A stretch of 64,000 nucleotides of DNA from an uncultured Clostridium sp. (GCA_947646915.1 CANSII010000004.1:3214-67213); one strand, 5' to 3'. Positions 4,650 through 62,643 are shown, numbered from the stretch's first letter. The notes: generated from the letters alone by a model not told the origin. Translations and numbers: made by a program.

Positions 4650-4772
4650 ACACATTTTAATGTGTCTCTACAATATCAATTTTCAGTATCTTAAACGCCT
4701 TGGAAAACGGAACTGCAAAATATATATCTTTTTTCTAAATATTATATTTTTGCAAAAAACCGAAACTTAAAT
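4650..4772 (+). repeat. Intergenic core-hairpin repeat, copy 1 (3' half of core plus O-type right arm)
   Basis: AATGTGTCTCTACAATATCAATTTTCAGTATCTTAAACGCCTTGGAAAACGGAACTG, then ATATATATCTTTTTTCTAAATATTATATTTTTGCAAAAAACCGAAACTTAA. Matches the copies at 28117 and 62431. Confidence 0.8.
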
Positions 4773-4847
4773 TTAATTTCTACTTGAATTTATTTCATTT
4801 TTATTATACTATATATAAAATAAAAATAGTAATTATGGGAGGTTAAT

Positions 4848-5642
4848 ATGCCAAAATTAACAAAAGAAAAAGAAGTTCTAAATAATACAAAAAAGAAATC
4901 AACTGCAAAAATAAATTCATCTTCTAAAACCACAAAAAAAGTGTCTAATTCAAATAAATCTAATTCAAAAAATCTTAAAAATAACTCAACAAAATCTACT
5001 AAAAGAGATACAATAAAAAAAGCAAAATCATCTACAAAGAAAAATAATTCTATTGTTGAATATTATGATTTACCATACAGGTATAATCAAACTATTGTAA
5101 AAATATTATCACAAACACCAAAATCATTATTTGTTTACTGGGATATTTCTGATGAAGATAGAGAAAACTATAAATTACAATTTGGAGAAAATTTTTTTGA
5201 AAATACAAAACCTGTGCTTATTATCTATAATGACACTTTGCACTACAGTTTTGAAGTTGATATAAATGATTTTGCAAATAGTTGGTATTTACATGTAAAT
5301 GATAGTAAATCTGATTATAGAATTGAACTTGGAAGACGCCCAATAAATAATAATGAAAAAATAGAAAAAAAATATGTTTATATAACATCTTCAAATAGAA
5401 TTGAAGCTCCAAATGATCACATTTTGTTCAATAAAGATCAAAAAATGATTTATTTTAGAAATGTAAAAACTAATCAAGAAACAAAAAAGTCAGTTTCTAA
5501 TTTGTCTTTTATTAGAAATATGGGTAAAATTTATAATATTTATGATTTATATAAAAAGATTTATAAAAATGAAAATGTAGAAGAAATTTATGATTTATCA
5601 AATCCATCATCACATCCATCTTCTCAACTTAACAATATATGA
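4848..5642 (+). CDS. DUF4912-like protein with K/S/N-rich N-terminus
   Basis: 264 aa, RBS GGGAGG before the ATG. The segment DLPYRYNQTIVKILSQTPKSLFVYWDISDED resembles DUF4912, which commonly precedes GH57 branching enzymes (from memory). Confidence 0.6.
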   Translation: MPKLTKEKEVLNNTKKKSTAKINSSSKTTKKVSNSNKSNSKNLKNNSTKSTKRDTIKKAKSSTKKNNSIVEYYDLPYRYNQTIVKILSQTPKSLFVYWDISDEDRENYKLQFGENFFENTKPVLIIYNDTLHYSFEVDINDFANSWYLHVNDSKSDYRIELGRRPINNNEKIEKKYVYITSSNRIEAPNDHILFNKDQKMIYFRNVKTNQETKKSVSNLSFIRNMGKIYNIYDLYKKIYKNENVEEIYDLSNPSSHPSSQLNNI

Positions 5643-5661
5643 TATCGAAGGGAGAATTAAA

Positions 5662-7248
5662 ATGCAACAAAAAAAGGGCTATGTAAGTTTTGTATTACAT
5701 GCACATCTTCCATTTATACATCATCCCGAAAGTGATGATTATTTAGAAGAATCATGGTTATATGAAGCTATCTCAGAAACATATATACCATTACTTACAA
5801 ATTTTAAAAAATTAGTTGATGAAGGTGTTAAATTTAGAATTACAATGTCTATTACTCCTCCTCTTCTATCCATGCTAGACAATAAACTTTTACAGAAAAA
5901 ATATATCAAATATTTAAAAAAATTAATTGAACTTTCAGAAAAAGAAGTTAAAAGAACTATTAAAGATAAAGAATTAAATAAATTATCACACTATTACCTT
6001 GATAGATATTCAAATGATTTACATTTATTTAAAGATGTTTATAAATGTGATTTAATCAGTCAATTTAAGCATTTTCAAGACATTGGAGTTTTAGAAATAA
6101 TCACATGTGGTGCAACACATGGTTATTTTCCTATATTATATGTAAATGAAAAAACTGTAAAAGCACAGATTGCTGTTGGTGTTAAAACATATGAAAAATA
6201 TTTTGGAAAAAAACCTCGTGGAATTTGGTTACCTGAATGTGGATATGTTCCTGAAGCTGATAAATATCTAAAAGAATTTGGTATAGAATATATAATAACA
6301 GAGTCACATGGAATTTTATATGCAGATCCTACACCTATATATGGAACATTTTCTCCTATTGTATCTCCTGAAGGTGTAATCGCATTTGGTCGTGATATTG
6401 AATCTTCAAGACAAGTATGGAGTTCAATAAATGGTTACCCTGGTGATTTTAATTATAGAGAGTTTTATCGTGATATTGGTTATGAAGCTGATTATGATTA
6501 TATAAAACCATATATTGCACACAATGGAGTTAGAGTTCATACTGGAATTAAATATCATAGAATTACTGGAAAAACCGAGTATAAAGAATATTATAATCTT
6601 AAATGGGCTATGGATTCTGCAGAAAAACAAGCAGGTCATTTTTTAGATTGTAGAACAAATCAAATTAATGATTTAGCAAAATATATGGATAAGCCTCCAA
6701 TAATCTTATGTCCTTATGATGCTGAACTTTATGGCCATTGGTGGTATGAAGGTCCATATTGGCTGTATATATTATTTAAAAAAATTTATTATGATGATTG
6801 TAATTTTGAATTGATAACACCTTCAGAATATATAGATAAATATCCTGAAATACAAGTATGTTCCCCTTGTCGTTCTAGTTGGGGTGCAAATGGATATAGT
6901 GAAGTATGGCTTAACCCATCAAATGATTATGCTCACAGGCATTTACATATTGCTGGTGATAGAATGTGTGAATTGGCTTATTTATATCCAAATGCAAAAG
7001 TTTTAAAGAAAAAAGCCTTAAATCAATGTGCTAGAGAATTATTACTAGCACAAAGTAGTGATTGGCTATTTATTATTACAAATGGTACAATGGTTGATTA
7101 TGCTAAAAAGCGTATTAAAGATCACATTGGTAGATTTACAAAATTATATAATCAAATAAAAAAAGATGAAATTGATGAAGAATTTTTAAAAGACATATCT
7201 AAAAAAGATTGTGTATTTTCTGATATAGATTACAATATTTATAATTAG
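5662..7248 (+). CDS. GH57-family 1,4-alpha-glucan branching enzyme (DUF1957 type)
   Basis: N-terminus MQQKKGYVSFVLHAHLPFIHHPE, plus CPYDAELYGHWWYEGPYWL and SSDWLFII motifs. Start set at ATG 5662 (RBS GAAGGGAGA); the ORF-track start at 5590 overlaps the upstream gene. Confidence 0.85.
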   Translation: MQQKKGYVSFVLHAHLPFIHHPESDDYLEESWLYEAISETYIPLLTNFKKLVDEGVKFRITMSITPPLLSMLDNKLLQKKYIKYLKKLIELSEKEVKRTIKDKELNKLSHYYLDRYSNDLHLFKDVYKCDLISQFKHFQDIGVLEIITCGATHGYFPILYVNEKTVKAQIAVGVKTYEKYFGKKPRGIWLPECGYVPEADKYLKEFGIEYIITESHGILYADPTPIYGTFSPIVSPEGVIAFGRDIESSRQVWSSINGYPGDFNYREFYRDIGYEADYDYIKPYIAHNGVRVHTGIKYHRITGKTEYKEYYNLKWAMDSAEKQAGHFLDCRTNQINDLAKYMDKPPIILCPYDAELYGHWWYEGPYWLYILFKKIYYDDCNFELITPSEYIDKYPEIQVCSPCRSSWGANGYSEVWLNPSNDYAHRHLHIAGDRMCELAYLYPNAKVLKKKALNQCARELLLAQSSDWLFIITNGTMVDYAKKRIKDHIGRFTKLYNQIKKDEIDEEFLKDISKKDCVFSDIDYNIYN

Positions 7249-7258
7249 AATTAATTTA

Positions 7259-7402
7259 GCCTAATAATATGAATTTTCAAAAATCCCGTTCTCCAAGGCG
7301 TTTAAAATAGTAAAAACTCAAAGTAAATAGACACACTATAACGGATTAAAGTAAATAACGACTCATAGTCGAACTCATTTTTTCAAATTAATATTATTAG
7401 GC
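7259..7402 (-). repeat. Intergenic core-hairpin repeat, copy 2 (complete, P-type arms)
   Basis: GCCTAATAATATGAATTTTCAAAAA ... core in reverse orientation ... TTTTTTCAAATTAATATTATTAGGC. The arms form a perfect-to-near-perfect terminal inverted repeat. Confidence 0.85.
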
Positions 7403-7538
7403 TTTAATTAATTTTATTTTTTCATTTATAATCATTACTGTTTTTTTCTTAAGTCAAGCTCCTTTTTTAGTAATCTGCATATTATAATGTATAACTTTTG
7501 GAAATTTAGTAGATACTAATATGGAGGGGAGAAAATTC

Positions 7539-11152: not shown

Positions 11153-12461
<1,309 letters not shown>

Positions 12462-14796: not shown

Positions 14797-14879
14797 TTTT
14801 TATTATTCCTTTCACTTTGTTCAATATCATTGACATTATTATACTATTTTTTATGGATATTGTAAACAATCTATTTTTT

Positions 14880-14935
14880 TAACTTTCGTTTTTTTATTTT
14901 ATAAATTTAATTATAGAAAAAAAGATATATATTTG
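14880..14935 (+). repeat. Intergenic repeat fragment (O-type left arm only)
   Basis: TAACTTTCGTTTTTTTATTTTATAAATTTAATTATAGAAAAAAAGATATATAT matches the left arm of the copies at 28117, 54352 and 62431. No core follows. Confidence 0.55.
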
Positions 14936-22115: not shown

Positions 22116-22190
22116 TTAAGTTTTGTTTTTTATAACTATAAATTTAATTATAGAAAAAAGATATATTTTTGCAAAAAACCGAAACTCAAA
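22116..22190 (+). repeat. Intergenic repeat derivative: O-type arms without core
   Basis: TTAAGTTTTGTTTTTT...ATTATAGAAAAAAGATATAT joined directly to TTTTGCAAAAAACCGAAACTCAAA. Confidence 0.55.
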
Positions 22191-23367: not shown

Positions 23368-23482
23368 TTTTTCAACTCTCTTTCATATATAGTAGTTTAA
23401 ACTAATTTTATTATATCATTTTCTCTTGTTAAAAACTAGTATATTTTCAATTTTTTTGGTAATAATATGTCTAAATAAATTT

Positions 23483-23589
23483 GTCCATTAGGGACGTTTC
23501 TTTTTGGGCAAAAATGTTCATTTTGGGACACATCTTTAAGATTGGAGAATTTTGAACAAAAATGTCCAAAAAGAAACGTCCCTAATGGA
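23483..23589. repeat. 25-bp perfect inverted repeat pair upstream of the germination operon
   Basis: GTCCATTAGGGACGTTTCTTTTTGG (23483..23507) and its exact reverse complement CCAAAAAGAAACGTCCCTAATGGAC (23565..23589), with a 57-bp spacer. Confidence 0.7.
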
Positions 23590-23617
23590 CATAATGGAAG
23601 GGAGAGCTATGTAAAAT

Positions 23618-28013: not shown

Positions 28014-28116
28014 AAATTAAACTAATTATTCACACATTATTAACAAGTTTGAATAATTAGTTTAATTAATTTTTATAATAGGGATATCATATAAATTGGT
28101 AAATATACAATTTCAT

Positions 28117-28329
28117 TTAAGTTTCGATTTTTTATTTTTCAAACTTTATTATAGAAAAAAGATATATATTATAAAGCGAGTTTGACAGTAAGTAGTTATT
28201 AACTTTAAGTAATTATAGTGTGTCTCTAAGGTTTGATTGTTCAGTATCTTAAACGCCTTGGAAAACAGAGCTGAATAATATATATCTTTTTTCTAAATAT
28301 TATATTTTTTGCAAAAAGTCGAAACTTAA
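28117..28329 (+). repeat. Intergenic core-hairpin repeat, copy 6 (complete, two-tier O-type arms)
   Basis: TTAAGTTTCGATTTTTT...TAGAAAAAAGATATATAT-TATAAAGCGAGTTTGACAG...TTATAGTGTGTCTCTAAGG...CAGTATCTTAAACGCCTTGGAAAACAGAGCTGAATA-ATATATATCTTTTTTCTA...AAAAAGTCGAAACTTAA. Confidence 0.85.
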
Positions 28330-28399
28330 AACAATTCCATTTTCTTCTTTTAAATCTCCAGTATGAAGAACATATGGAATATATAATTGTACCTCTATA

Positions 28400-30592: not shown

Positions 30593-30703
30593 ATCTAATA
30601 ATATAATTTAAGTAAATGAGTTCGACCATGAGTTGTTTTTTACTTTAAGTCATTATAATGTGTCTCTAAAATATAATTGTTCAGTATTTTAAATGCCTTG
30701 GAT
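30593..30703 (+). repeat. Intergenic core-hairpin repeat, copy 7 (P-like left arm plus core; right arm missing)
   Basis: ATCTAATAATATAATTTAAGTAAATGAGTTCGACCATGAGTTG...CATTATAATGTGTCTCTAAAATATAATTGTTCAGTATTTTAAATGCCTTGGA. Confidence 0.75.
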
Positions 30704-30816
30704 GCTGTAGTTGTTCAAAACAATAGTGAGTTTCATACCTTAAAGTTGCATAGTTCTTCCTATATTATAAAAAGAGGCATAAATAAAAATTCACATTTTA
30801 TTCATCCCCCTTTGTT

Positions 30817-31065: not shown

Positions 31066-31146
31066 TTTTTATTCCTCCCTGTTGTTTCCTTTTTTTCTTT
31101 ACATATTCTAACATATAAATATTTAAATTGCAATAGGCACATTTTC

Positions 31147-31389
31147 TTTAAGTTTGGGTTTTTTAAGATTTTCATTTTAAGTTTTGGCATTTTGCAAAAA
31201 ATATATTATATAGAGAAAAGATATATATTATTCAGCTCTGTTTTCCAAGGTGTTTAAGATATTGAACATTCAAACCTTAGAGACACACTATAATGACTTA
31301 AAGTGAATAACGACTCACTGTCAAACTCGCTTTATAATATATATCTTTTTTCTATAATAAAGTTTGAAAAATAAAAAACCGAGGCTTAA
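31147..31389 (-). repeat. Intergenic core-hairpin repeat, copy 8 (complete O-type, inverted relative to copy 6; one terminal arm duplicated)
   Basis: Its reverse complement aligns end to end with 28117..28329 (roughly 90 percent identity by eye). There is an extra TTAAGTTTGGGTTTTTT at 31147. Confidence 0.85.
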
Positions 31390-31478
31390 AGATTTACATA
31401 ATTTTACTTTTAGACAAAATTATAATATAATTAATACTAATTAAAGGCTAAATAAAAAAATATTTATATTAATTAAAT

Positions 31479-32942: not shown

Positions 32943-32974
32943 TTTGTATTACCTCCTTAACAACATCTGTAATT

Positions 32975-36100: not shown

Positions 36101-36198
36101 ATCAATTTCCTCCTAATAATTATACTACTATATTTTTACAAAATTCTCTTTTTTATTTTTTTCCATTTTATCACATCTATTATTTTTTTGGAATAGTT

Positions 36199-37600: not shown

Positions 37601-37659
37601 GCAACAAAAAACCACTAAATAAATTTTTCTCTTAATTAAAAGCCTTTCAGCTTAAAATC

Positions 37660-38241: not shown

Positions 38242-38407
38242 TTTTATTCTCCTTATATTGCTCTATTTTTTAGTACAATTTTTGTTCCATTTAAATTCTT
38301 TGTTTACTTTAAAGCATTTATTGTATAATTAACATTTATAGCAAAACGATTATATACTTTTTTATATAATCGTTTGTTAATATTCACAGCCTTAAAAATA
38401 ATTACAG

Positions 38408-38556
38408 AAAAGGTTATAAATATAATATTTAAATTGAGTTCGACCATGAGTTGTTTTTCACTTTAATCAATTATAGTGTGTATCTAAAATATGAATATTC
38501 AGTATATTAAACACCTTGGAGAAAGGAAATCTTAAATATTATATTTATAACCTTTT
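38408..38556 (+). repeat. Intergenic core-hairpin repeat, copy 9 (complete, Q-type arms)
   Basis: AAAAGGTTATAAATATAATATTTAAATTGAGTTCGACCATGAGTTG...TTATAGTGTGTATCTAAAATATGAATATTCAGTATATTAAACACCTTGGAGAAAGGAAATCTTAAATATTATATTTATAACCTTTT. Confidence 0.85.
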
Positions 38557-38604
38557 TATGTTAAGTTTAATATTGGCTGTGAATTGTAACAATCATTCTA
38601 AAAT

Positions 38605-39294: not shown

Positions 39295-39336
39295 ACATAT
39301 CCTCCTGTTATCTATAAATAAAATATATATTATAAA

Positions 39337-39723: not shown

Positions 39724-39735
39724 TATAAACTTTAA

Positions 39736-40074
39736 TTATATAGATAACACATCTTTAATTGCATCTCCAATTATTTTATTAACATCAGACAACATAGTAT
39801 TAAACTTTGTTTCAGTCTCAAAAAATCTCTTTGCATCTTGATTTTCCAATAGCTCAATATATAACTGTTGCATTCTTTGATTTTTTTCATCATTAGCCTT
39901 CCCTGTTTGCATTATTTCAATTTGAGCATCATATCTAGCTTTCTCAAATTCACTTATTTTCTTTTTCAATTCAGAATTTAAATCTAAAACTTCTTTAGCC
40001 ATTTTATAATTTACATATTCCTCAGATTGTTTAATCTCCATAGCCAATTTATTTGCTGTATCATATACATTCAT
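39736..40074 (-). CDS. YlbF/YmcA-family regulatory protein (UPF0342-like)
   Basis: 112 aa, all-helical. The N-terminus MNVYDTANKLAMEIKQSEEYVNYKMAKE and overall pattern are typical of the YlbF family. Confidence 0.65.
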   Translation of the reverse strand: MNVYDTANKLAMEIKQSEEYVNYKMAKEVLDLNSELKKKISEFEKARYDAQIEIMQTGKANDEKNQRMQQLYIELLENQDAKRFFETETKFNTMLSDVNKIIGDAIKDVLSI

Positions 40075-40110
40075 ACACTTAACCTCTAATTTCTAATAAA
40101 ACTTATTAAA

Positions 40111-40252
40111 GATGAATAATATTAATTTGAAAAAATGAGTTCGACCTGAGTCGTTCTTCACTTTAACCAGTTTTAGTGTGTCTCTAAATCAAATTGTTCA
40201 GTATCTTAAACGCCTTGAAGAACGGAATTTTTAAAAATTCATATTATTCAGC
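40111..40252 (+). repeat. Intergenic core-hairpin repeat, copy 13 (complete, P-like arms)
   Basis: GATGAATAATATTAATTTGAAAAAATGAGTTCGACCTGAGTCG...TTTTAGTGTGTCTCTAAATC...TTCAGTATCTTAAACGCCTTGAAGAACGGAATTTTTAAAAATTCATATTATTCAGC. Confidence 0.85.
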
Positions 40253-40262
40253 TTATATATGA

Positions 40263-48700: not shown

Positions 48701-49451
48701 TTTTATCACTGGGATTAAAATCATCTAAATCTGATTTTTGCTTCGGTTTAATTCCTATATTATACGCTACTGTTTTATCTGAAAATATCAAATCATCATA
48801 AAATTGTCTTTGATATGTTTCTTTCCATACTTGATATTTTTTATTTACAGTATCAGCCATTTCATATAATAATATAGTACTATCTTTTTTCGACAACTCT
48901 TTTATATTAGCATCATCTTTGCAACTAATTACTGGGCATTTATGTATAATTCTACCATCTTTAAAATCTGAAAAATATAATGCTAACCATTTTGTTGATG
49001 CTTCTTGTTGCCAATAGGAAAATAATTGTGCTCCATCATTAAAAGTATCTTTATAAGCTTTTTGGTACTCTCTACCTGCTTTTTTACATTCAATTATAAA
49101 CAAAACTTCTGTTTTGCTTTCATTATAAACACAAATATCACACCTTCCACCTTTTTGATTATGTCCTAAATTCCATTGTTTTTCAAGTTCTATATGCTCT
49201 GGTCTATATCCCTTCGTTAATAATTTATTTATACATTCAAAAACAACAAAATTTTCTGGTTTAAATGCTGTATTATTTCTATTTCCTATAACTTCATTTG
49301 GATATATCAATTTTTTATTCTTAAAATCTACTTTCATATAACAATTGAAATCTGGATAAAATTTCTCAAAAATATCTTTTTTCTTAGTAAATTCCATTTC
49401 TCTTAATACTTCTTCTAAATTTTCTGTTGTTATCACTTTATTTCTCCTCAT
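45711..49451 (-). CDS. single-chain restriction-modification-specificity enzyme (type IIB/IIG-like: PD-ExK nuclease + N6-adenine methyltransferase + two HsdS-type TRDs)
   Basis: 1246 aa. Nuclease-like RCDICVY...FIIECKK, methyltransferase motif I VIDYACGAGHFL, motif IV LVANPPYAV. Two C-terminal TRD-like segments (LGNVVDIRIGGTPSR..., LKNISKDIFAGGDIPKN...) separated by coiled spacers. Confidence 0.8.
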   Translation of the reverse strand: MRRNKVITTENLEEVLREMEFTKKKDIFEKFYPDFNCYMKVDFKNKKLIYPNEVIGNRNNTAFKPENFVVFECINKLLTKGYRPEHIELEKQWNLGHNQKGGRCDICVYNESKTEVLFIIECKKAGREYQKAYKDTFNDGAQLFSYWQQEASTKWLALYFSDFKDGRIIHKCPVISCKDDANIKELSKKDSTILLYEMADTVNKKYQVWKETYQRQFYDDLIFSDKTVAYNIGIKPKQKSDLDDFNPSDKIVNKFEEILRHNNVSDKENAFNKLIALFICKLVDEISKNDDDIMDFQYKQGTDTYETLQDRLQRLHQKGMQDFMKEEIFYVENDYAEKLFIQYTGQERKKAIEELNKTIRILKFYSNNDFSFKDVHNEELFYQNGKILVEMVNLFQEYKIVYTSKHQFLGDLFEQLLNKGFKQNEGQFFTPIPITRFIWDSLPIERVIRKDNNSVFPRVIDYACGAGHFLTEGIEAINSYYEHINNEKVSNNSWVNEHIYGIEKDYRLARVSKVSMFMNGAGNTNIIFGDGLENYPDKGIIPNTFDILVANPPYAVSSFKSHLQLKNNKFNLFDKISNDGSEIEILFIERISQLVKPKGIVAVILPSSILSNNSSSYIGAREEILKNFYIRAITCFESKTFGETGTNTVVMFLEKMEQSPIRYNLVQDSAEAILSNNINSDWEDEEIYNSYLEKINVDKETYNKFVTEKEDYKYYESNEYFRSYIQAFNELNKIKNKKKQSSFKNLTIDEQNEWLNQNFYDFVKLKEREKIIYFAMVYKQIVLIITSPSENSEKKKFLGYDWSHRKGNEGIVINNPGGMLYDDKNRYNENTLAGLIRSSYNGEIRNIDKLDKYYKYANLKDMIDFTTFEFDKSIKTNISKRIEIKSKYPILPLGNVVDIRIGGTPSRSNVEYFRGNNLWVSIAEMKGQVITDTKEKITDEAVKKSNVKLIPKGTTLLSFKLSIGKTAIAGADLYTNEAIAALIPIDGNITNEYLFALFSGNMIDLHNVGNKAFGKSLNSKYLKESVRIPVPPINIQNKIVEECIKIDEKYNSICMSIEEYRKEIVKIFKELNKLGKRKKLKNISKDIFAGGDIPKNEFSTIITENYSIPIYANGSGEKSLLGYTNKSRVNEDAITISARGTIGYSKLRKAPFYPAVRLIVIIPNEKEVNKKYLEILLNNTNIKGNGKVIQQLTVPMIKEEEILLPSLDIQSQFVNKVEKINLKIEELENELVDINKRKQDILKKYL

Positions 49452-54171: not shown

Positions 54172-54351
54172 TTTCTTTCCTTTCGTATTCTATCAATATT
54201 AAATTTTTCTAAAATCTGAAAAAAACACTAATGTTTCATCAGGATACTTAGCAAATTTATATGCCATTTCTCTATCATTCTCCTCTTCGTTTTTCATATT
54301 ACGACTATTATATCACAATTTCCATAATTTTGCCACATTATTTTAACTTAT

Positions 54352-54472
54352 TTAAGTTTCGGTTTTTTATTTTCCAAACTTTATTATAGAAAAAAGATAT
54401 ATATTATAAAGCGAGTTTGATAGTGAATCGTTATTCACTTTAAGTCATCATAGTGTATCTCTATTTTTTTAT
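54352..54472 (+). repeat. Intergenic core-hairpin repeat, copy 14 (O-type left arm plus 5' two-thirds of core)
   Basis: TTAAGTTTCGGTTTTTTATTTTCCAAACTTTATTATAGAAAAAAGATATATATTATAAAGCGAGTTTGATAGTGAATCGTTATTCACTTTAAGTCATCATAGTGTATCTCT. Confidence 0.8.
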
Positions 54473-54607
54473 TTTCAGCTTCTTATTTATTACAATATAT
54501 AACAAAATTTTCATAAAAAATTCGACAAAAATACAACTATCTATATTACCTTGAAACACTATTAGTATGAATATTTTTACCAGTTGGATAATTTTCTGAA
54601 ATTTCTA

Positions 54608-54636
54608 TTGACATTGCAAATTTTTTGGATTATATT
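54608..54636 (+). promoter_or_regulatory. candidate sigma-A promoter for the agrA/agrC-like operon
   Basis: TTGACA (54608..54613), a 17-nt spacer, then TATATT (54631..54636), ~88 nt upstream of the start codon. Confidence 0.45.
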
Positions 54637-54723
54637 GTATATAAAACTGGAAAATAAAGGAAGTTTATTTTTTTTTGTCGAACTTTGTTTTTTTATAAAA
54701 ATTTATACAAGGTAGGATTATAT

Positions 54724-55419
54724 ATGTTAAATTTTGTTATTTGTGATGATAATTTAAATATTTTAGATAAATTTTCAAAAATGCTAGAAAGTATTTTTAT
54801 TAAAAATAATTTTGAAGGTAAAATTGGACTTGCTACAAATGATATAACACAGCTGTTAGATTATGTCGATGATAATAATACTGATGTACTTATTTTAGAT
54901 ATTAATTTAAAATCTGACAAAACTGGCTTAGAAATAGCTTCTTTTGTAAGAGAAAGAAATAAAAATGTTTATATTATTTTTACTACAGCTCATCTAGAAT
55001 ATGCAATGATGGCTTACAAATTTAAAACTTTTGATTATATTGCAAAACCTGTTACTTCAGACAGATTAGAAGAAACTATTATTCGTTTGTTTGAGGATGT
55101 TAACGGTGTTCCAAAAAAGTATATTAAAATTGATAATAATAAAACTATTATTGATTCTAGTGAAATTCTTTTTATTAAAAGAGATGGTATGAAACTAATT
55201 TTTCATACAAAAAGTCGTGATTATGAAACTTATAGTTCTTTTAATAAAATTCAAGGATTACTACCTTCTAATTTTGTTAGAACACATAAATCATTTATTG
55301 TTAATATTTTAAATGTTGTAAATGTTGATACAAGTGCTAATGTTGTTTCATTTTGTGATGGTACTACTTGCTTTATTGGACCTAAATTTAAAGATTATTT
55401 ATTGGAGGTTTTAAAATGA
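54724..55419 (+). CDS. agrA: LytTR-family response regulator (AgrA-like)
   Basis: 231 aa from ATG 54724. Receiver domain (ICDDN...VLILDINL) plus a C-terminal LytTR domain (FVRTHKSFIVNI). The stop overlaps the kinase start (ATGA). Confidence 0.88.
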   Translation: MLNFVICDDNLNILDKFSKMLESIFIKNNFEGKIGLATNDITQLLDYVDDNNTDVLILDINLKSDKTGLEIASFVRERNKNVYIIFTTAHLEYAMMAYKFKTFDYIAKPVTSDRLEETIIRLFEDVNGVPKKYIKIDNNKTIIDSSEILFIKRDGMKLIFHTKSRDYETYSSFNKIQGLLPSNFVRTHKSFIVNILNVVNVDTSANVVSFCDGTTCFIGPKFKDYLLEVLK

Positions 55420-56768
55420 TTGATTTTTTAAATGTTATTTGGAATGTACTTAGTACACCTAATGCAGATTTGATTAATTTCTTATCTATACCTGTATTAC
55501 TATTAATAGAAATGCCACTTTCATTTTTTATTTTGATAACTTTATTTAAAATATCATATACTAAAAAACAATGTTTTATATTTATAGGAATATCCTCATT
55601 TGTAGCAATTATTGGTAATTTATTTGTTCCTTCGCCTTTTAATATTATACTTAACTATTTATCTTTATTTATACTAATTAAACTTTTATTTAAAATTAAT
55701 TTTATAAAAACTTGTATTGCATCTCTATTACCAAGTATAATATTTGGATTAATTGGAAGTCTACTTTTCAATCCTTATTTAATTTTGCTAAATATTACTT
55801 TTGAAGAAGCAACTACAATTCCTATATTCAGAATACCTTTTTATTTTGTAATGTATTCTATAATTTTTATATTTATACTAATTTTAAAATATAAAAACAT
55901 TGCAATTAATATATTAGACACATTTGACAAGAAAAATAAAGCAATTATTACACTAAACTTTATCTTTGGATTCTTTAATATAATTGTCCAAGGTTTACTA
56001 ACAGTAAATTATATTGATATTTTACCAATAAATTTTACATTTTTTAATTTTATATGTATGTTAATTTATTTTGGAATAAGTTTTTTCAGTTTAGCCAAAG
56101 TTATAAATTTAGTTACTACAACACAAAAACTTGAAAGTGCAGAAGAATATAATAAAACTTTACACATTTTGCATGATAATGTTAGAGGTTTTAAACATGA
56201 TTTTGATAATATTGTTACAACAATTGGTGGCTATGTAAAAACAAATGATATGAAAGGTTTAGAAAGTTATTATTCTCAATTAGAAGAGGACTGTCAAAAA
56301 GTAAACAATTTATACTTATTAAATCCTGATGTTATTAATAATCATGGGATATATAATTTACTTACATCAAAATATAATAAAGCTGATGAACAAGGGATAA
56401 AAGTTAATTTAACATTTTTGTTAGATTTAGAAGATTTAAATATGAAAATTTATGAATTTGCTAGAATTTTAGGAATACTTTTAGATAATGCTATCGAAGC
56501 ATCTGCTGAATGTGAAGAAAAAATTATAAATATCACTTTTAGAAATGAAGCAAAAAATAATAGAAATTTAATTATTATTGAAAATACATATAAAGATAAA
56601 GAAATTAATATAGATAATATTTTTAATAAAGGTATATCTTCTAAAGAAAATCATACAGGATTAGGATTATGGGAAGTTACACAAATCTTAAAGAAAAATA
56701 ATAATGTTAATTTACATAGTGATAAAAATGATAAATTTTTCATACAACAATTAGAAATTTATTATTAG
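55416..56768 (+). CDS. agrC: AgrC-like GHKL sensor histidine kinase
   Basis: 450 aa. About 6-7 N-terminal TM segments, H-box region RGFKHDFDN, N-box LLDNAIEAS, G-box HTGLGLW. Confidence 0.85.
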   Translation: MIDFLNVIWNVLSTPNADLINFLSIPVLLLIEMPLSFFILITLFKISYTKKQCFIFIGISSFVAIIGNLFVPSPFNIILNYLSLFILIKLLFKINFIKTCIASLLPSIIFGLIGSLLFNPYLILLNITFEEATTIPIFRIPFYFVMYSIIFIFILILKYKNIAINILDTFDKKNKAIITLNFIFGFFNIIVQGLLTVNYIDILPINFTFFNFICMLIYFGISFFSLAKVINLVTTTQKLESAEEYNKTLHILHDNVRGFKHDFDNIVTTIGGYVKTNDMKGLESYYSQLEEDCQKVNNLYLLNPDVINNHGIYNLLTSKYNKADEQGIKVNLTFLLDLEDLNMKIYEFARILGILLDNAIEASAECEEKIINITFRNEAKNNRNLIIIENTYKDKEINIDNIFNKGISSKENHTGLGLWEVTQILKKNNNVNLHSDKNDKFFIQQLEIYY

Positions 56769-56789
56769 AGTGTTTATACACTCTTTTAT
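56767..56789 (+). terminator. Rho-independent terminator after agrC-like gene
   Basis: AGAGTG-TTTATA-CACTCT followed by TTTTAT. Overlaps the stop codon. Confidence 0.65.
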
Positions 56790-56854
56790 ATTGCATATAA
56801 ATCCTATTTAATTAAATATTTATGTATTTAGAACTTTTTTATAATTTTAAAATA

Positions 56855-56880
56855 GAGAGTGCCTCTTTTGAGACACTCTC
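56855..56880 (-). terminator. hairpin terminator downstream of agrD
   Basis: GAGAGTGCCTC-TTTT-GAGACACTCTC (11-bp stem with one mismatch), ~90 nt past the agrD stop on the minus strand. Confidence 0.55.
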
Positions 56881-56970
56881 AGCAATTGGATTGTTTATAA
56901 TAACATTAAAGTATATTATATTTAAGTAAAAGCATTGTCGAACTACTTCTACTTAAAATTAAAAACTAAA

Positions 56971-57090
56971 TTAATCTTTTTTTACTAAACTAGCTGGCAT
57001 TTTTGGTTGATGCATAACAAACCAAGCATAACAAGCTGTGTTAGTAGATTTTGCATATTTTTCTGCTATTTTTGCTAAAAATTTTAACAT
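56971..57090 (-). CDS. agrD: AgrD autoinducing-peptide precursor (39 aa, not in ORF track)
   Basis: Manual translation: MLKFLAKIAEKYAKSTNTACYAWFVMHQPKMPASLVKKD. RBS AAGGAGG 7 nt upstream. Amphipathic leader, a single Cys followed by 4 hydrophobic residues, then an HQP.MP tail. Immediately downstream of agrB. Confidence 0.8.
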   Translation of the reverse strand: MLKFLAKIAEKYAKSTNTACYAWFVMHQPKMPASLVKKD

Positions 57091-57158
57091 AAGGTTTCCT
57101 CCTTAAATTTTTATGTAATACAAAAATATTACCGGTTTATATTTTTGTATTAATCAAA

Positions 57159-57776
57159 TTAATTTGAAGTAACTTCATATACTTCATAACCATACTTGTT
57201 GTTAGTAATTCTATAAGCTAATTTCGTAATCATACATGTTTGTATAAAATAACCAAATATTAAAATATTTGCTATTACTGCATTATTTATAATTAATGCA
57301 ATAATTAATCCTATTGTAAAGCAAACATATGATAATATTTGTTTTTGCTTTCTAACTTTTTTGCTTAAAATTGGGACATCCTCTGTATCTGCTGGTGCAT
57401 ATAATTTAATCATGACTATTCCAAATATCCCTAATGCTAAAATTAAGAAATACTTCATCATATCATCTAATATTATAATTTTAGATAAATATGCTGTTCC
57501 ACAATAAAATGCACTTGTTGATACTATACATCCTATATGTGTTTTTAGATGTAATCCTCCAGAAAATGTTCTATATGGTAAAAGTATTAAAAATGTTAAT
57601 AAACTTAACTTAAATACTCCTAATAAATATGCTATAAATAACATTATAAATATTTTTGGTATTTCACCTATTAGTATTTGTAAGCCATAGTCTATTATTT
57701 CCGCTCTTTCATCATCAATTTCTGGCATCTTTTTTCTAATTTTATTGGTTAGAGACTGACTGATTTTATCTATCAT
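57159..57776 (-). CDS. agrB: accessory gene regulator B (AgrB, AIP-processing membrane peptidase)
   Basis: ~205 aa, multi-TM. Conserved YRTFSGGLHLKTH motif. An alternative GTG start lies at 57788. Confidence 0.88.
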   Translation of the reverse strand: MIDKISQSLTNKIRKKMPEIDDERAEIIDYGLQILIGEIPKIFIMLFIAYLLGVFKLSLLTFLILLPYRTFSGGLHLKTHIGCIVSTSAFYCGTAYLSKIIILDDMMKYFLILALGIFGIVMIKLYAPADTEDVPILSKKVRKQKQILSYVCFTIGLIIALIINNAVIANILIFGYFIQTCMITKLAYRITNNKYGYEVYEVTSN

Positions 57777-57967
57777 TTTCTCACCCACTTTTTCTTAACT
57801 TGTTCATAGTTTATCATGGATTTCTTTAAAATTTATTTTTGTTTTACGAATACACTGTTTTCTTTTATAAAAATTTACTTTTTTAATTTTATAAATGATT
57901 TTGTCACTTTCATAAAATATTTTAGAAGTTTCATATAAGTTTTATTTCTACACATAAAATACTAAAA

Positions 57968-58090
57968 ATTCAAAGTATAGAAACACATTATAATAGGTTC
58001 AATGGAATTACGACATATTATCAAACTCACTTTGAAATATATATCTTTTTTCTATATTCAAATTTATACAATAAAAAAATCGAAACTTAA
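57968..58090 (-). repeat. Intergenic core-hairpin repeat, copy 15 (O-type arm plus degenerate core, inverted relative to copy 16)
   Basis: Its reverse complement reads TTAAGTTTCGATTTTTTTATTGTATAAATTTGAATATAGAAAAAAGATATATATTTCAAAGTGAGTTTGATAAT...TATTATAATGTGTTTCTATACTTTGAATTT. Same subfamily as 62431..62643. Confidence 0.75.
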
Positions 58091-58218
58091 ATAAAATAAG
58101 GATTTTCTTTTTTCATTATTTATGATATAGTAACTATACATAATAGAGCATGAAGTAACAAAATAAATACATTTTAAGATTTATTAATAAAAAGTTTTTA
58201 TAAAAAGGAAAGTTATAT

Positions 58219-58866: not shown

Positions 58867-61656
58867 TTATAAATTTTTCTGAGAAATCTTTTGATACATT
58901 TTCATTAGTTCTGCAACACAATCTGATTCTGTCATTTTTCTCCAATCAAATCCATATGCTTCCATTACAGCCTTATCATTTTCTTGATGTGCTTTCCTTA
59001 ATTCTACTGGCATTGTTAATTCATCATATAAATCTGCTAAACTACTATTTGGATATATTTTTCTAGCATCTAATATTCCTTGAGCTGTTTTCTCAACTTT
59101 CTCTTTTTGTGGTGCTGTTGGATTTGGCCATGGGAATGTATTATATACAATTGAGGAAGAATACTGATAATCACTCTTTAATCTTCCAGTTACAATTCGC
59201 ATCCAGGACATATGTACATTTGATTGCAAAATTCCATATTCATATATTGTGCCATTTTGTATAATTAACAAAGAATTGGTAGTTATAACAGTATTATCTA
59301 TAAAACCAATAGGGATATATCTTCTTTTTTCAGAAGTTGTTACAGGTATAACTATTGCAGATTTTGGATTCTTTTGTTCTCTAAAAAGTCCTGGAGTATC
59401 TGCCATTGCAACAGTCTTTTTATCTGTACTATTTAATCTCATTTGACGTACTTTTTGTAATCTATCTAGTATAAAAGCATATTTTTTTATTTCATTTGGA
59501 GATGTACCTACTAACCACAAACAAAATCTTTTTTTATTATATAAAAATTCTGTTGAACCTACTAATCTTTTAATGTACTTACCTATATCTGGTTCTTTTT
59601 TTATTATATTAATATATTCATTTTCATCTAGTATTAAAAAGCCACCATCTGTTGGTTGATTTCCTTTCTCCACCTTATTTATGTTACATAAGGGTTTTGT
59701 CCTTTTTTTTATAAAACAATTATTATCTTCAATAAAATAGTTATTTATTTGTTTAACTTCTTTAGCAGAATCACCATCAAATATAATTTTTTTTATATTA
59801 TTAGTATTATATACACAAAAACCAATAATTACACAAAATACTTGTGCCTTTTCATAAGCTTCTGAATCCCATTTAAAGGACTTATAGCAGAAAAGTATAT
59901 TTAAGTTATATTTCTCAGCCAAAGGTTTCCATAATGTATAATTTTGTTCTCCTTGAATTATAGAATTAGTAGAAACAAAAGCAGATTTTATATTAGTATT
60001 AGTCATATATATACAAGCTTTCATATACCAACCACTTACATAATCTATAATACCTAAATTTTCAAAATCATTTCCAAAGATAATTTTCATATCATTACAT
60101 TGTTCTTTATTTCTTTGCCATTGTTTAGCACCAACAAACGGTGGATTTCCCATAATATAATTCAACTCATTTTTATCAATAACATCATTCCAATCAATTC
60201 TCAAAGCATTAGCCTCAATTATATTACTATACGATTTGAGAGGCAAAAAATCTAAATTCAAATGCAAAATATTTTCTGTTTCAGCCATCATTTGACTTTC
60301 AGCAATCCATAAAGCAGTTTTTGCAACAGTTACAGCAAAGTCATTTATCTCTATTCCATAAAATTGCTTAATTGAAACTTTTATTGGATTATTTATACTA
60401 TCTCCAAATTGAATTTGTCCTCTATATAATTTTTCTAATGCTTTATTCTCTAGTTTTCTTAAAGACAAATATGTTTCTGTTAAAAAATTACCTGAACCAC
60501 AGGCAGGATCTAAAAATTTTAATTGTGATATTTTATCTTGAAATTCTAAAACATTCTTTTTTATAGTATTTAAACTAGTTACATTTAAAACTTTATTTTC
60601 TAATTCTTCTTTTAACTCATCTAAAAATAGTGGATCAATAACTTTATGTATGTTTTCTATTGATGTATAGTGCATTCCTCCACTTCTTCTAGTTTCAGGG
60701 TTTAATGTACTTTCAAAAACAGCACCAAATATTGTAGGTGAAATATTACTCCAATCAAAATCTTCACTTGCTTTTGTCAATAATATACTTTTTACCTTTT
60801 CATTTAACATTGGTATTTCAATATTTTCGTCAGCAAATAATCCACCATTTACATATGGAAATTGTGCTAAATCTTCCTTCATATATGGATCTCTATCTTC
60901 TGATTTTGTATCTAATACTTTAAATAAATCTATTAATCCCCTTCTTATATCTTCTGCTTCAAATTTTGATAAATAATCATGAAACATACTACGTTTTCCA
61001 AAAATTCCTGCATCTTCAGCATATAAGCAAAATACTAATCTAACACATAACATATTTAAGCTTCTTAGTGTTTCTTCATTTTCAGGATCTTTATATAATG
61101 GTATTATTTCATCATATAATTTTCCTACTAATTCTCCTGCTTGAATAGATATTTCCATCTCTTTTTTTAAATTATTATTTCCAGCATCTACAATAAATTT
61201 TAATCTATTATATTCTTTTTCTAAATCTTTCAAAAATACCTCTTCTGGCTCTCCATTTGGATTTTCCATATTATATATTAAGAATGATTTAAAATTGCAT
61301 GTAATAACCCATTTTGGATGTTTCGAAACTGGTAATTCTGTTATATACTTTTTTGCTTGTTGAAATGGTGTTAAAAGTGAACCATCTGCTTGTCTTATTC
61401 CTTTTCTCAAATCTTTATTGACACTTTTCTGCTCTATTAATACTTTTGTTGATGGTATATATGCGTCTATAAATCCTGTTGTCTTATCTATATGTACTTG
61501 ATCTTCAAATTCTATAAATTCTTCTATTTTTTCAACTTCAAAGATTTGTTCTAATAATTGAATCCAAAATATTTGACTTTGCCCTTTTTCATATCCTTTA
61601 TCTTTCCAAAATTCTGAAAAATTTTTTGCTACTTGTTTTTGTTCTTTTTCTGTCAT
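58867..61656 (-). CDS. MmeI-family type IIL/IIG restriction-modification enzyme
   Basis: 929 aa. N-terminal nuclease motif GFIDAYIP...VLIEQKS, methyltransferase motif I FLDPACGSGNFL, motif IV MGNPPFVGAKQ. Size and domain order are as in MmeI-like enzymes. Confidence 0.85.
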   Translation of the reverse strand: MTEKEQKQVAKNFSEFWKDKGYEKGQSQIFWIQLLEQIFEVEKIEEFIEFEDQVHIDKTTGFIDAYIPSTKVLIEQKSVNKDLRKGIRQADGSLLTPFQQAKKYITELPVSKHPKWVITCNFKSFLIYNMENPNGEPEEVFLKDLEKEYNRLKFIVDAGNNNLKKEMEISIQAGELVGKLYDEIIPLYKDPENEETLRSLNMLCVRLVFCLYAEDAGIFGKRSMFHDYLSKFEAEDIRRGLIDLFKVLDTKSEDRDPYMKEDLAQFPYVNGGLFADENIEIPMLNEKVKSILLTKASEDFDWSNISPTIFGAVFESTLNPETRRSGGMHYTSIENIHKVIDPLFLDELKEELENKVLNVTSLNTIKKNVLEFQDKISQLKFLDPACGSGNFLTETYLSLRKLENKALEKLYRGQIQFGDSINNPIKVSIKQFYGIEINDFAVTVAKTALWIAESQMMAETENILHLNLDFLPLKSYSNIIEANALRIDWNDVIDKNELNYIMGNPPFVGAKQWQRNKEQCNDMKIIFGNDFENLGIIDYVSGWYMKACIYMTNTNIKSAFVSTNSIIQGEQNYTLWKPLAEKYNLNILFCYKSFKWDSEAYEKAQVFCVIIGFCVYNTNNIKKIIFDGDSAKEVKQINNYFIEDNNCFIKKRTKPLCNINKVEKGNQPTDGGFLILDENEYINIIKKEPDIGKYIKRLVGSTEFLYNKKRFCLWLVGTSPNEIKKYAFILDRLQKVRQMRLNSTDKKTVAMADTPGLFREQKNPKSAIVIPVTTSEKRRYIPIGFIDNTVITTNSLLIIQNGTIYEYGILQSNVHMSWMRIVTGRLKSDYQYSSSIVYNTFPWPNPTAPQKEKVEKTAQGILDARKIYPNSSLADLYDELTMPVELRKAHQENDKAVMEAYGFDWRKMTESDCVAELMKMYQKISQKNL

Positions 61657-61687
61657 TTATAGTTCCCCCTATGTAATTCCATTTTAA

Positions 61688-62378
61688 TTATATATTCTCA
61701 ACATCATTTAAAATACACCATGTCCCATTACTTTCAGGAAAAGCCTTAAATGCAATCTCCTCTTTAGAAATTGGATGCTGTATTATTAACTCATATGCCC
61801 ATAATGCAATTTGTTTGCCTTGTCCTCTAATTCCATATTTTTGATCTCCAAAAATACTATGTCCAAAATTAGATAATTGAACTCTAATTTGATGATGTCT
61901 TCCAGTATGTAAATTCACCTTAACCAAACTTAATTTCTTTAAGTCATTATATGTTAAAACTTCATAATCCAGTTTAGCTAATTTTGAATTCTTTTTGTCT
62001 TTATTTACAACTTTGCTTATATTGTTTCTTTCATCTTTATATAAATAATCTTCTAACATTCCGCTTCTTTTGCTCTATTTTACCATCAACAACAGCAAGA
62101 TATTTTTTCTTAAAAATCTTATTTCTAACTTGCTCACTCAGACGTGATGCAGCTTTTGATGTTTTAGCAAAAATCATAATTCCACCAACAGGTCTATCTA
62201 ATCTATGTACTAGCCCTAAATATACATTTCCTTGTTTATTATATTTTTCTTTAATATATTGTTTTACTATTGTAAGCATATCTATATCACCTGTTTTATC
62301 CGATTGTGATGGAATATTAGGTTTTTTTTCTACTACAATTATATGATTATCTTCATATATTACTTTTAAATTAGCCAT
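61688..62378 (-). pseudogene. RluA-family pseudouridine synthase, split by a single-base frameshift near 62050
   Basis: ORF 62037..62378 carries the catalytic LVHRLDRPVGGIMIFAK. ORF 61688..62059 carries VNLHTGRHHQIRVQL. Removing one base in CAAAAGAAGCGGA gives a continuous ...GKIEQKSGMLEDYLYKDE.... Confidence 0.85.
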
Positions 62379-62430
62379 TTTTTACCTCTCAATAACTCAA
62401 AAACTTTTTTATTCATTAATGATAAAATAT

Positions 62431-62643
62431 TTAAGTTTTGGTTTTTTCATTTTATAAATTTGATTTTAGAAAAAAGATATATATTTCAAAGTGAGTTCGA
62501 CCATGAGTCATTATTCACTTTAACTTGTTATAATGTGTATCTTTACTTTGAATTTGCAATTTTTTAAACGCCTTGGAGAATGGAACTGGGAAATATATAT
62601 CTTTTTTCTAAATAATATAATTTTGTCAAACGCCGAAACTTAA
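62431..62643 (+). repeat. Intergenic core-hairpin repeat, copy 16 (complete, two-tier O-type arms)
   Basis: TTAAGTTTTGGTTTTTT...TTAGAAAAAAGATATATAT-TTCAAAGTGAGTTCGACCATGAGTCATTATTCACTTTAAC...TTATAATGTGTATCT...TTTTAAACGCCTTGGAGAATGGAACTGGGAA-ATATATATCTTTTTTCTAAA...CGCCGAAACTTAA. Confidence 0.85.

Follow-up and report, generated by a model that had tools for sequence, protein, structure and literature searches.

The intergenic spacers of the window, a stretch of 64,000 nt from an uncultured Clostridium sp. that was analysed as a whole, contain a family of repeats that are probably non-coding, hairpin-forming, MITE-like mobile elements with a modular build, which would be mobilised in trans and which inhabit low-GC uncultured gut Clostridia. 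The family is an unusual variant of a familiar genomic parasite and not a new kind of system. Mobility is argued from the terminal repeats, the uniform length of the units, the 9-bp duplications on some of the copies, and a presence that is specific to certain lineages.

The copies in the window and their anatomy

Searches with blastn, and with nhmmer using a core profile, found 14 core-bearing copies or fragments in the window; together with two core-less arm fragments, these make up the 16 per 64 kb, intergenic and on both strands, that the sequence-only reading had counted. Eleven of the core units are on the + strand and three on the − strand, and an ORF and Pfam map of the window places every copy between genes. 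One ORF call, 38605-39381, overlaps a copy because of an in-frame ATG upstream; the homology of relatives to this ORF stops at 39336. Two test 25-30-mers had 5 and 8 matches in the window versus none in shuffled sequence. The copies are 80-93% alike, with truncated, internally deleted and tandemly duplicated forms among them, and they look old and largely inactive today. They belong to types designated P, Q and O, and the arm sequences and the complementarity initially given for these types were found again. The copies are as follows:

4639..4771, + strand: truncated O-type copy without its left half, made up of the 3' part of the core, the right inner arm (4720-4737), a spacer and the outer terminal repeat of the right side (4754-4771)
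7228..7433, − strand: P-type copy; inner unit 7259-7402 (25-bp arms and 92-nt loop), with degenerate outer inverted repeats reaching to 7228 and 7433
12318..12461, + strand: P-type copy of 144 nt, between tgt and queA
14879..14933, + strand: O-type fragment without core, limited to the outer terminal repeat, the spacer and the inner arm of the left side
22116..22190, + strand: derivative of an O-type unit by internal deletion, in which the left terminal repeat, the spacer and the left inner arm run straight into the right terminal repeat
28107..28339, + strand: complete O-type unit of 215 nt (28116-28330) with its flanks, the 9-bp direct repeats ACAATTTCA (28107-28115) and ACAATTCCA (28331-28339)
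30595..30720, + strand: decayed P-like copy; left arm degenerate, core to about position 92, right arm lost
31147..31164, + strand: isolated O-type terminal repeat TTTAAGTTTGGGTTTTTT; the next copy is 12 nt away
31167..31399, − strand: complete O-type unit of 215 nt (31176-31390) with its flanks, the 9-bp direct repeats GATTTTCAT (31167-31175) and GATTTACAT (31391-31399)
38376..38590, + strand: complete Q-type unit of 215 nt; outer repeats GTTAATATTCACAGCC and GGCTGTGAATTGTAAC, perfect inner 25-bp stem (38408-38432 / 38532-38556), 99-nt loop
39337..39723, + strand: three P-type units in tandem, repeating every 142 nt (39337-39480, 39481-39622 and 39623-39723, the last truncated after core position ~68)
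40111..40252, + strand: P-type copy of 142 nt, with ylbF on one side and a DUF3048 gene on the other
54351..54485, + strand: left half of an O-type unit, with the terminal repeat, the spacer, the inner arm and a core that stops near position 71
57955..58091, − strand: O-type left half in inverted orientation; core to about position 76-88
62430..62644, + strand: complete O-type unit of 215 nt with no recognisable target duplication

The O-type unit at 31176-31390 and the Q-type unit at 38376-38590 form the opposite borders of a 7.5-kb island that is absent from sister species. The O-type halves at 54351-54485 and 57955-58091 bracket an agr-like cassette. The window also encodes a reverse transcriptase (36199-37239) that comes with a TR/VR pair of its own and with an Avd-like gene. 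Two places had been described as O arms lacking a core; 14879-14933 is indeed an arm-only fragment, whereas the one at 22116 is not an empty palindrome but the product of an internal deletion.

Units range across the family from 142 to 216 nt, below the ~300 bp taken as the limit for MITEs, and the full-length ones, of 213-216 nt, consist of a core module inside an outer shell that has terminal inverted repeats of its own, TTTAAGTTTCGG or GTTACAATTCACAGCC. This outer tier is also found on the Q copy (38376-38590) and, in degenerate form, on one P copy (7228-7433). The core module is a loop closed by GTTC/GAAC and by an AT-rich stem of 21-25 bp; the arms are a constant 92 nt apart in six of the copies, and 99 nt apart in Q. 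Within the 92-nt loop there are near-invariant blocks at the 5' edge (AGTTnGAC), in the middle (AGTGTGT) and at the 3' edge (TCTTAAACGCCTTGGAGAAC), which are most likely sites of recognition by a protein. In the subfamily of Lapin-026, the GTGTG block is replaced, and yet at least 18 copies exist. The coding capacity of the family is nil: the sole frame, of 10 codons, occurs in some P copies and is absent from other subfamilies. Across genera, it is the interior that is most conserved, while the stem differs from one subfamily to another and still pairs.

The same core occurs in at least two unrelated shells, the O and the GTTAC types, and also in P-type units with no recognisable shell. A 191-nt element of the GTTAC type in sister species (L103/L106/L110:8632-8822) has an inner stem around a different centre. 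The nested or modular construction suggested at the outset is borne out to the extent that one core has at least two shells and one shell has another interior; core module and shells would have come together, by recombination or nesting, on more than one occasion.

Stem pairing and the nature of the constraint

In an alignment of 53 copies, 88.9% of the stem cells are paired; shuffles give 61% and slid controls 48-56%. The observed value lies above all 500 shuffles and every slid register. Stem cells in which both sides have changed number 341, versus around 120 in the shuffles, none of which (0/500) reaches 341. Inside a single MAG, 10 stem cells are compensated versus 21 that are unpaired. 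The claim that the stem is kept complementary is therefore upheld, with pairing far beyond chance and compensated changes at the level of single bases.

The nature of this constraint was approached through the mismatches. G:T mismatches in the stem are about as frequent as A:C ones (19 vs 17, or ~22 vs 21 in a second count), so that there is no excess of G:U over A:C on either strand, and the 92-nt core contains no conserved or covarying pair on either strand. The equality of these counts, along with a loop that has no conserved fold, points to a constraint on the stem at the level of DNA rather than RNA. Complementarity is kept as Watson–Crick pairing on both strands. One explanation would be that a single-stranded DNA hairpin or a cruciform is needed in cis; another would be that one arm repeatedly templates the correction of the other.

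A simpler idea is that the arm classes are just unrelated neighbouring sequence, and that their complementarity is a by-product of AT-rich DNA. The G+C content of the window is 25%, which gives a high chance of A:T pairing, and the shuffles do still pair at 61% of stem cells. Such a by-product has practically no chance of being the answer, since the arms are more complementary than those of every shuffled or slid control, the arm classes recur over loci and genomes, and the arms of a copy pair better with each other than with those of different copies (mean local scores of 42 and 20, respectively); the controls and the arm scores refute it. A more substantial proposal, also made by the sequence-only reading, is that the copies are structured non-coding or cis-regulatory RNAs in which the folding of the RNA is selected and the long stem presents a single-stranded loop, for example for processing, for stability or as a protein sponge. 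The strong covariation of the stem would fit this, as would folding energies well below those of shuffles (z of −3 to −8), a small hairpin, CGUU-CUCCAA-GGCG, that the core could form on the minus-strand RNA only, and the presence of pieces of copies in metatranscriptome contigs. RNA coverage in these data, which have no strand information, is, however, not above that of neighbouring genes. The orientation of the copies would also fit the proposal: in tandem contexts, they are antisense to the flanking genes 36 times and sense 14 times (p=0.003). Against the proposal stand the lack of any G:U excess, the loop with no covarying pair, and the result from Rfam, in which nothing in the 64 kb matched at gathering score, while 39300-40300 gave only noise (E above 1), with no match to speak of even at E<10. 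Sister species with conserved synteny are wholly without the family, which therefore is no housekeeping RNA, and terminal repeats, target duplications, truncations and tandem copies are features of transposons. Selection for a folded RNA is thus quite unlikely. The orientation bias nevertheless hints at a link to or from transcription or replication that lies outside the MITE-like model. Convergent, terminator-rich spacers hold 7 of 72 copies, with no enrichment, which counts against insertion into palindromes that were there beforehand.

Mobility, distribution and the search for an enzyme

The preferred reading, that of MITE-like elements, rests in part on what is held in common between copies at different loci. 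The window shares the O terminal repeat TTTAAGTTTCGG with L005, L010, L041 and L043, and full-length units of 213-216 nt with a common terminal repeat are found in the window, L005, L010 and L043. A further terminal repeat, GTTACA.TTCACA, is common to the Q-type copy and 18 Lapin-026 copies, and the P arms occur at four loci in the window and in MGBC107383. Two of the three complete O-type copies (28116-28330 and 31176-31390) are flanked by 9-bp direct repeats that match at 8 of 9 positions, for which the probability by chance is ~7e-4 each; similar direct repeats flank L005 and L056. At 62430-62644 and at the P-type copies, target duplications are absent or ambiguous. Over all copies, 8/9 matches between flanks occur in 9.7% of cases versus 3.0% in controls (p=0.006), a modest excess. 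The contrast with classical MITEs that had been drawn on the grounds of swapped arms was accordingly overstated: there are full-length units with constant terminal inverted repeats, some of them with 9-bp duplications.

Around 79 further copies were found in other MAGs of gut Clostridia from mouse, rabbit and human gut, and in four metagenomes (mouse-gut runs) the depth of 31-mers of the repeat is 8-35 times that of the flanks. In sister species, no core match was found at 78 syntenic loci (~1 Mb; 45-88% identity in RNase R), and the spacers corresponding to the window copies are short. Within the same gene neighbourhood, L030, which carries the family, has its copy in another spacer. As for the empty sites that relatives were expected to reveal, the sister species do have short spacers, while conspecific mouse-gut strains, in fragmented unitigs of 3-15x, showed no site that was filled in one and empty in another, which is weak evidence.

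The shell would owe its insertion to a transposase acting in trans, most likely a DDE enzyme of the cut-and-paste type. This enzyme is hypothetical because the search for an autonomous element sharing the ends, as had been recommended, found none in the window or IMG/VR, nor in the 0.64 Mb that surrounds other copies. The earlier observation that no transposase is encoded in the window was confirmed on the ORF and Pfam map. Searches of phages and plasmids gave no match to the family. Conservation across genera of the interior over the ends is unexplained by a purely selfish, DDE-mobilised element.

Other possible origins of the core and comparable known systems

One rival reading, which was also among the original suggestions, makes the core of ~100 nt a separate mobile element that inserted, several independent times, into the centres of pre-existing palindromes, the composites then spreading by means of the ends of their hosts; the varied but paired arms would then be target DNA, outside the element. 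The occurrence of one core in different shells or none, the sister-species element with an inner stem and another centre, and the position of invariant blocks exactly at both edges of the loop, like transposon ends, are all in its favour. On the other side, no core-less P, Q or O-inner hairpins were found in the window (in 0.64 Mb of core-bearing genomes, arms were simply counted, whether or not adjacent to a core), the P and Q arms are absent from 1 Mb of sister DNA, in which O-inner arms are near chance level, and no palindrome is evident in the one sister spacer that was aligned in detail. The "core-less" O copy at 22116 is a deletion derivative, the junction between core and stem has no duplication or footprint, and no enzyme was found for the core. 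Each arm class comes back at numerous loci and in further genomes, which means that the arms travel with the core, and the compensated changes in one subfamily and one MAG require a pairing constraint anyway. Independent insertions of the core are hence unlikely, if still worth considering.

Another possibility is suggested by HUH enzymes and relaxases, the substrates of which have a variable paired stem and an invariant single-stranded loop. The conserved loop might be the nick or binding site of a single-strand-DNA enzyme, either an HUH enzyme of the RAYT/IS200 kind or a relaxase of the MOBV/Pre type, that recognises a fixed loop irrespective of the sequence of its hairpin. On this view, the family would correspond, in Firmicutes, to REPINs, or would be an oriT-like site scattered in many copies. 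Apart from the fit to this substrate logic, the constraint is symmetric at the DNA level, and the strands are unequally used by the core units in a window with uniform GC skew. In addition, the central block AAGTCATTATAGTGTGT, which follows CACTTTA, resembles the MobM site of pMV158, AAGtaTAGTGTG/TTATAC with ACTTTA repeats (PMC5863519). This likeness extends over only 9-10 nt and was noticed after many informal comparisons, and the Lapin-026 copies do without the block. Neither the window nor the surroundings of any sampled copy revealed a relaxase, a Rep protein or a Y1 transposase, HUH enzymes are not known to make 9-bp target duplications, and a loop of 92 nt is far above the size of their known substrates. 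A nicking site of this kind is very improbable. The related proposition that the loop is the cis site of a host-encoded enzyme, an HUH transposase or relaxase-like protein reading "any hairpin plus this loop", is a long shot too; were it true, the family would be a loop-specified counterpart of the REPIN–RAYT system in Firmicutes, able to ride in different transposon shells, and its chromosome-wide copies could even supply dispersed nick sites.

Among known systems, bacterial MITEs resemble the family in being non-coding, intergenic, multi-copy and dispersed, at 140-216 nt, with terminal inverted repeats common within a subfamily and flanking duplications of ~9 bp on some copies, and in having subfamilies, truncated and tandem copies, and a patchy distribution over related genomes. 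Ordinary MITEs have conserved ends and an interior that drifts; here, it is the reverse across genera. One interior with unrelated terminal repeats, an internal stem of 21-25 bp with compensated changes, and the failure to find a parent insertion sequence are further differences. REPINs and REP-BIMEs, which are mobilised by RAYT (IS200-like Y1 transposases), are likewise abundant intergenic hairpin units of ~100-200 nt with no linked transposase. Their two arms apparently stay able to pair, and they are presumed to act as hairpins of single-stranded DNA. REPINs have a conserved stem (REPs of 20-40 nt with a 5' GTAG, paired in inverted orientation) and a free loop, whereas in the present family, the loop is conserved, and the free, AT-rich stem varies by subfamily; no REP head of the GTAG type is evident by eye in the aligned stems. 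The family also differs in its target duplications on some copies and in its hosts, which are Clostridia and not Proteobacteria, and no RAYT gene, which in REPIN genomes is single-copy and flanked by the repeats, is present in the window.

The Correia elements of Neisseria, ERIC/IRU of enterobacteria, BOX/RUP of pneumococcus and the bcr1-type repeats of the Bacillus cereus group are also intergenic long hairpins of 100-200 nt, co-transcribed with neighbours, with modular or size variants and, in some families, compensated changes. We know of no sequence similarity to them, and of none among them whose subfamilies share an invariant 90-nt loop despite unrelated stems and ends. Integron attC sites have a conserved hairpin structure with a variable stem sequence. 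Unlike them, the present units end in TTTAAG... or GTTACA..., with no fit to GTTRRRY, and the R'/R'' core sites (RYYYAAC / GTTRRRY) are absent; the units lie on both strands among housekeeping genes rather than in a same-orientation cassette array, their conserved sequence is in the loop and not at the base of the stem, and no integrase domain or intI is among the Pfam matches of the window. Unlike RNAs associated with retrons or DGRs, which lie next to their reverse transcriptase and have an msr-msd or a template/variable repeat pair, the family is present at many loci with no reverse transcriptase nearby. In a MOBV1 oriT, an inverted repeat is followed, after about 8 nt, by a GpT nick site. 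That of pMV158 has a MobM binding and nick region in which a hairpin is followed by TAGTGTG/T, and the central block of the core agrees in part with this region, over only ~10 nt (PMC5863519). The family differs from such an oriT in having no relaxase in the window or near copies and in its 16 copies per 64 kb of chromosome, and the motif TATAGTGTGT, found in most subfamilies, is absent from one large subfamily, that of Lapin-026, in which it is replaced.

A conserved core in unrelated shells

The repeat family in the window, first noticed from the sequence alone, is real: two test strings taken from it recur 5 and 8 times, and neither recurs in shuffles. Self-blastn, together with an nhmmer profile of the core, found 14 core-bearing copies; searches with the arms also gave two fragments (14879 and 22116) and, at 31147, a lone terminal repeat. 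This gives a density of around one copy per 4 kb, and every copy does lie between genes, as had been claimed. Six copies have exactly 92 nt between their arms, and the copy with the Q class of inner arms has 99 nt. An alignment of 53 copies, from the window and other genomes, has 20 invariant columns, which form AGTT.GAC and T.TTAAAC.CCTTG.A.AA at the 5' and 3' edges of the loop, respectively, plus a near-invariant A.TGTGT in the middle. The 20-nt invariant block, TCTTAAACGCCTTGGAGAAC, is probably a protein-recognition site. In the RNAalifold prediction, GUUC/GAAC and a stem of 21 pairs close the loop, and no pairs form inside it on either strand. A small peptide encoded in the core was rejected for want of a conserved ATG; a scan for tRNA and tmRNA found none, and the GTTCGA of the 5' block lacks a T-arm stem.

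In many copies this stem is surrounded by a second tier, a shell bounded by terminal repeats of at least two kinds, including TTTAAGTTTCGG and GTTACAATTCACAGCC. The complete units are as follows.

Complete O-type and Q-type units of the window
28116-28330: complete O-type unit (213-216 nt), ends TTTAAGTTTCGG / CCGAAACTTAAA
31176-31390: complete O-type unit (213-216 nt), same ends
62430-62644: complete O-type unit (213-216 nt), same ends
Q copy: 215 nt, ends GTTAATATTCACAGCC / GGCTGTGAATTGTAAC

O-form units of equal length occur in two further MAGs (loci L005, L010, and L043), and a rabbit MAG has a subfamily of 18 copies with the terminal repeat of the Q copy. Related shells, containing GTTAC, surround a P-type copy in MGBC107383 and, in decayed form, the copy at 7259. 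Candidate target duplications accompany some of the units: of the three complete O units, two are flanked by 9-bp direct repeats that match at 8/9 positions, with a chance probability of about 7e-4 for each. A perfect 12-bp hairpin at 38346-38375 (AACGATTATATA / TATATAATCGTT) adjoins the Q-type unit on its left, and the right arm of the hairpin overlaps a possible target duplication of that unit.

Maintenance of the paired stems

The complementarity of the arms, which the sequence-only reading had proposed to persist while their sequences changed, goes beyond chance: arms of the same copy score a mean of 42 when paired, versus 20 for arms of different copies. In the stem alignment, 88.9% of the cells are paired (shuffles 61%, slid registers 48-56%), and 341 cells have changed on both sides versus around 120 in shuffles, a value reached by 0 of 500 shuffles. 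Since the shuffle control ignores relatedness, the stems were also compared within one MAG, where there are 10 compensated cells (of four different kinds, one of them a swap from G:C to C:G) versus 21 unpaired ones. This is far more compensation than is expected from independent mutations, and the stems are maintained in the paired state.

Whether the constraint acts on RNA can be approached via the mismatches, G:T being a wobble on a plus-strand RNA and A:C a wobble on a minus-strand RNA. The two are equally frequent (19 vs. 17 and around 22 vs. 21), in a test to which the AT-rich stems give little power. Rfam gave no family at the gathering score across the window and none at E<10 across 1 kb. 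In four metatranscriptome runs, the contigs are sparse and unstranded, and some hold pieces of copies at a depth like that of their neighbours. The equality of the mismatches, the foldless loop, and the silence of Rfam therefore support a constraint on DNA rather than on RNA, within the power that AT-rich stems leave to the wobble test. A promoter and terminator scan found no intrinsic terminator in the elements; the arms carry outward TTGAAA/TTCAAA hexamers resembling -35 boxes, and 11/12 promoter matches occur only at tandem junctions.

Three explanations had been offered for a core in swapped but paired arms. One, that the element inserts into pre-existing palindromes, is not supported. The spacers concerned are short in relatives, and the one aligned in detail has no evident palindrome. 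Nor were core-less P, Q, or O-inner hairpins found within the window; the copy at 22116, which had been read as core-less arms, is a deletion derivative. Moreover, convergent spacers are not favoured (7/72 copies). A nesting of two elements fares better and is supported in part, the same core being present in at least two unrelated shells; sister species also have a GTTAC-type shell and inner stem around a different centre. The third explanation, a structured RNA or DNA under selection for the stem, is supported, for DNA rather than for RNA.

Distribution and mobility of a probable hairpin MITE

A 20-nt pattern of the core was scanned against 185,579 species genomes. The matches listed lie mostly in MAGs of uncultured Clostridia or Clostridium, from gut metagenomes of rabbits, mice, and others; a few lie in other phyla, and these do not fit the core profile. 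The presence of the family is specific to lineages. Indeed, the core is absent from all 78 metagenomic loci with an RNase R orthologue (around 1 Mb, 45-88% identity, gene order conserved). The distance from ylbF to the next gene is around 20-45 nt in relatives, where the window has a triple array, and the other spacers occupied in the window are likewise short. In another carrier of the family (locus L030), the same gene neighbourhood has its copy in another spacer. The copies in the window are 72-93% alike and the locus of the 30595 copy is also occupied in conspecific strains; the expansion is therefore old. The 31-mers of the repeat occur at 8-35 times the depth of the flanks, and in a search for empty sites, the Logan unitigs of conspecific strains (depth 3-15x) broke at the repeats and their joints were chimeric.

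Between co-directional genes, the core is antisense in 36 cases and sense in 14 (p=0.003). As to whether replication or transcription causes this bias, the GC3/TA3 skews of single genes were too noisy for loci of 8 kb to be classified.

The window contains no transposase, as had been noted, and its ORFs without a Pfam match also lack one in NCBIfam. No transposase-like gene recurs near copies elsewhere, the recurrent ORFs in 0.64 Mb around them being housekeeping genes, and the ORFs adjoining truncated copies, again housekeeping genes only, include no autonomous partner. Blastn of the phage and plasmid collections with a P-type unit gave no match, and scans of IMG/VR with the core and both terminal repeats gave only chance matches, in GC-rich or unpaired contexts. 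Terminal-repeat pairs 0.5-5 kb apart are limited to 54352/58090, around an agr cassette and without duplication.

The element works in the manner of a MITE family and for the most part qualifies as one, a hairpin MITE, which is set apart from other MITEs because its interior is conserved rather than its ends. A DDE-type transposase that acts in trans, at the outer repeats, probably moved the element, and the core module would have been exchanged between shells; the stems would stay paired through either a single-strand hairpin requirement or templated correction from arm to arm, and a protein would read the invariant blocks of the loop. REPINs share the maintained hairpin, but the roles of stem and loop are reversed. 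The family does not qualify as attC sites, as an Rfam family, or as retron or DGR RNAs. The central block has some likeness, no more than a lead, to the region of pMV158 that MobM binds and nicks, AAGtaTAGTGTG/TTATAC (PMC5863519); this block is missing from one large subfamily, and no relaxase was seen. Literature searches, outside ISfinder and Dfam, turned up no earlier description of the family.

If this reading holds, the repeat is packed very densely in these uncultured gut Clostridia and inverts the usual MITE rule, with an interior kept across genera and exchangeable ends and stems. The copies would then be a natural data set on DNA-hairpin pairing, in which selection on a single-stranded intermediate could be compared with templated correction of arms. 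The family fragments short-read assemblies of its carriers, the contigs of runs breaking at copies, and its core could be used as a metagenome marker for the clade.

Neighbouring elements and genomic setting

The window has a G+C content of around 25%, a strongly negative GC skew, and housekeeping and sporulation genes of the Clostridia type (gpmI-tpi-pgk, tgt-queA, RNase R, GerA/B/C, SpoIIP, YqfD, and YlbF); near-identical DNA occurs in mouse-gut metagenomes. A 7.5-kb island at 31148-38629, bordered by an O-type and a Q-type copy, contains a DUF2201 metallopeptidase-like gene, an AAA ATPase, and a diversity-generating retroelement (DGR) at 35737-38241. The island is missing from all syntenic sister-species loci, where its flanks are around 50 nt apart.

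Features of the DGR
36199-37239, minus strand: reverse transcriptase
37660-38241, minus strand: Avd, weak match
37507-37588: template-like copy of an 82-nt repeat pair, 85% alike
35812-35893: variable-like copy of the same pair

Most differences between the two copies fall on adenines in the minus strand of the template copy. The DGR target gene may be small or frameshifted since the variable-like copy sits in short ORF fragments (35737-35907 and 35855-36100).

An agr-like quorum-sensing cassette at 54351-58091 (LytTR response regulator, GHKL kinase, and AgrB) is flanked by two inverted O-type left halves, 3.7 kb apart and without target duplication, which could mean that copies have rearranged with one another or that the structure is composite. 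In sister species, a 191-nt element (L103:8632-8822, also L106 and L110) with GTTAC-type terminal repeats and an inner stem around a different centre occupies the secG-like/RNase R spacer region, the place of a P-like copy in the window. Another sister-species locus (L098:19190-19900) has three tandem units of around 40 nt (gatttaaaattaggtaa...) followed by an ORF, a layout reminiscent of a type III toxin-antitoxin locus, and its end adjoins a solo GTTAC-type terminal repeat.

The stretch of around 320 nt that separates RNase R from the island (30817-31133) is kept at 77-84% in all relatives, contains no ORF of at least 100 aa, and may represent a small gene, for instance secG. A GC-richer 110-nt palindrome at 23482-23591, directly upstream of the gerA operon (39-nt arms, 87% complementary, 32-nt spacer), is unrelated to the repeat family. 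Next to an O-type copy, a pseudouridine synthase gene is broken up into two ORFs that overlap (61688-62059 and 62037-62378), probably as a frameshift or pseudogene. Two large fused restriction-modification genes, a type I/IIG-like methylase-specificity fusion and an MmeI-family enzyme, lie at 45711-49451 and 58867-61656.
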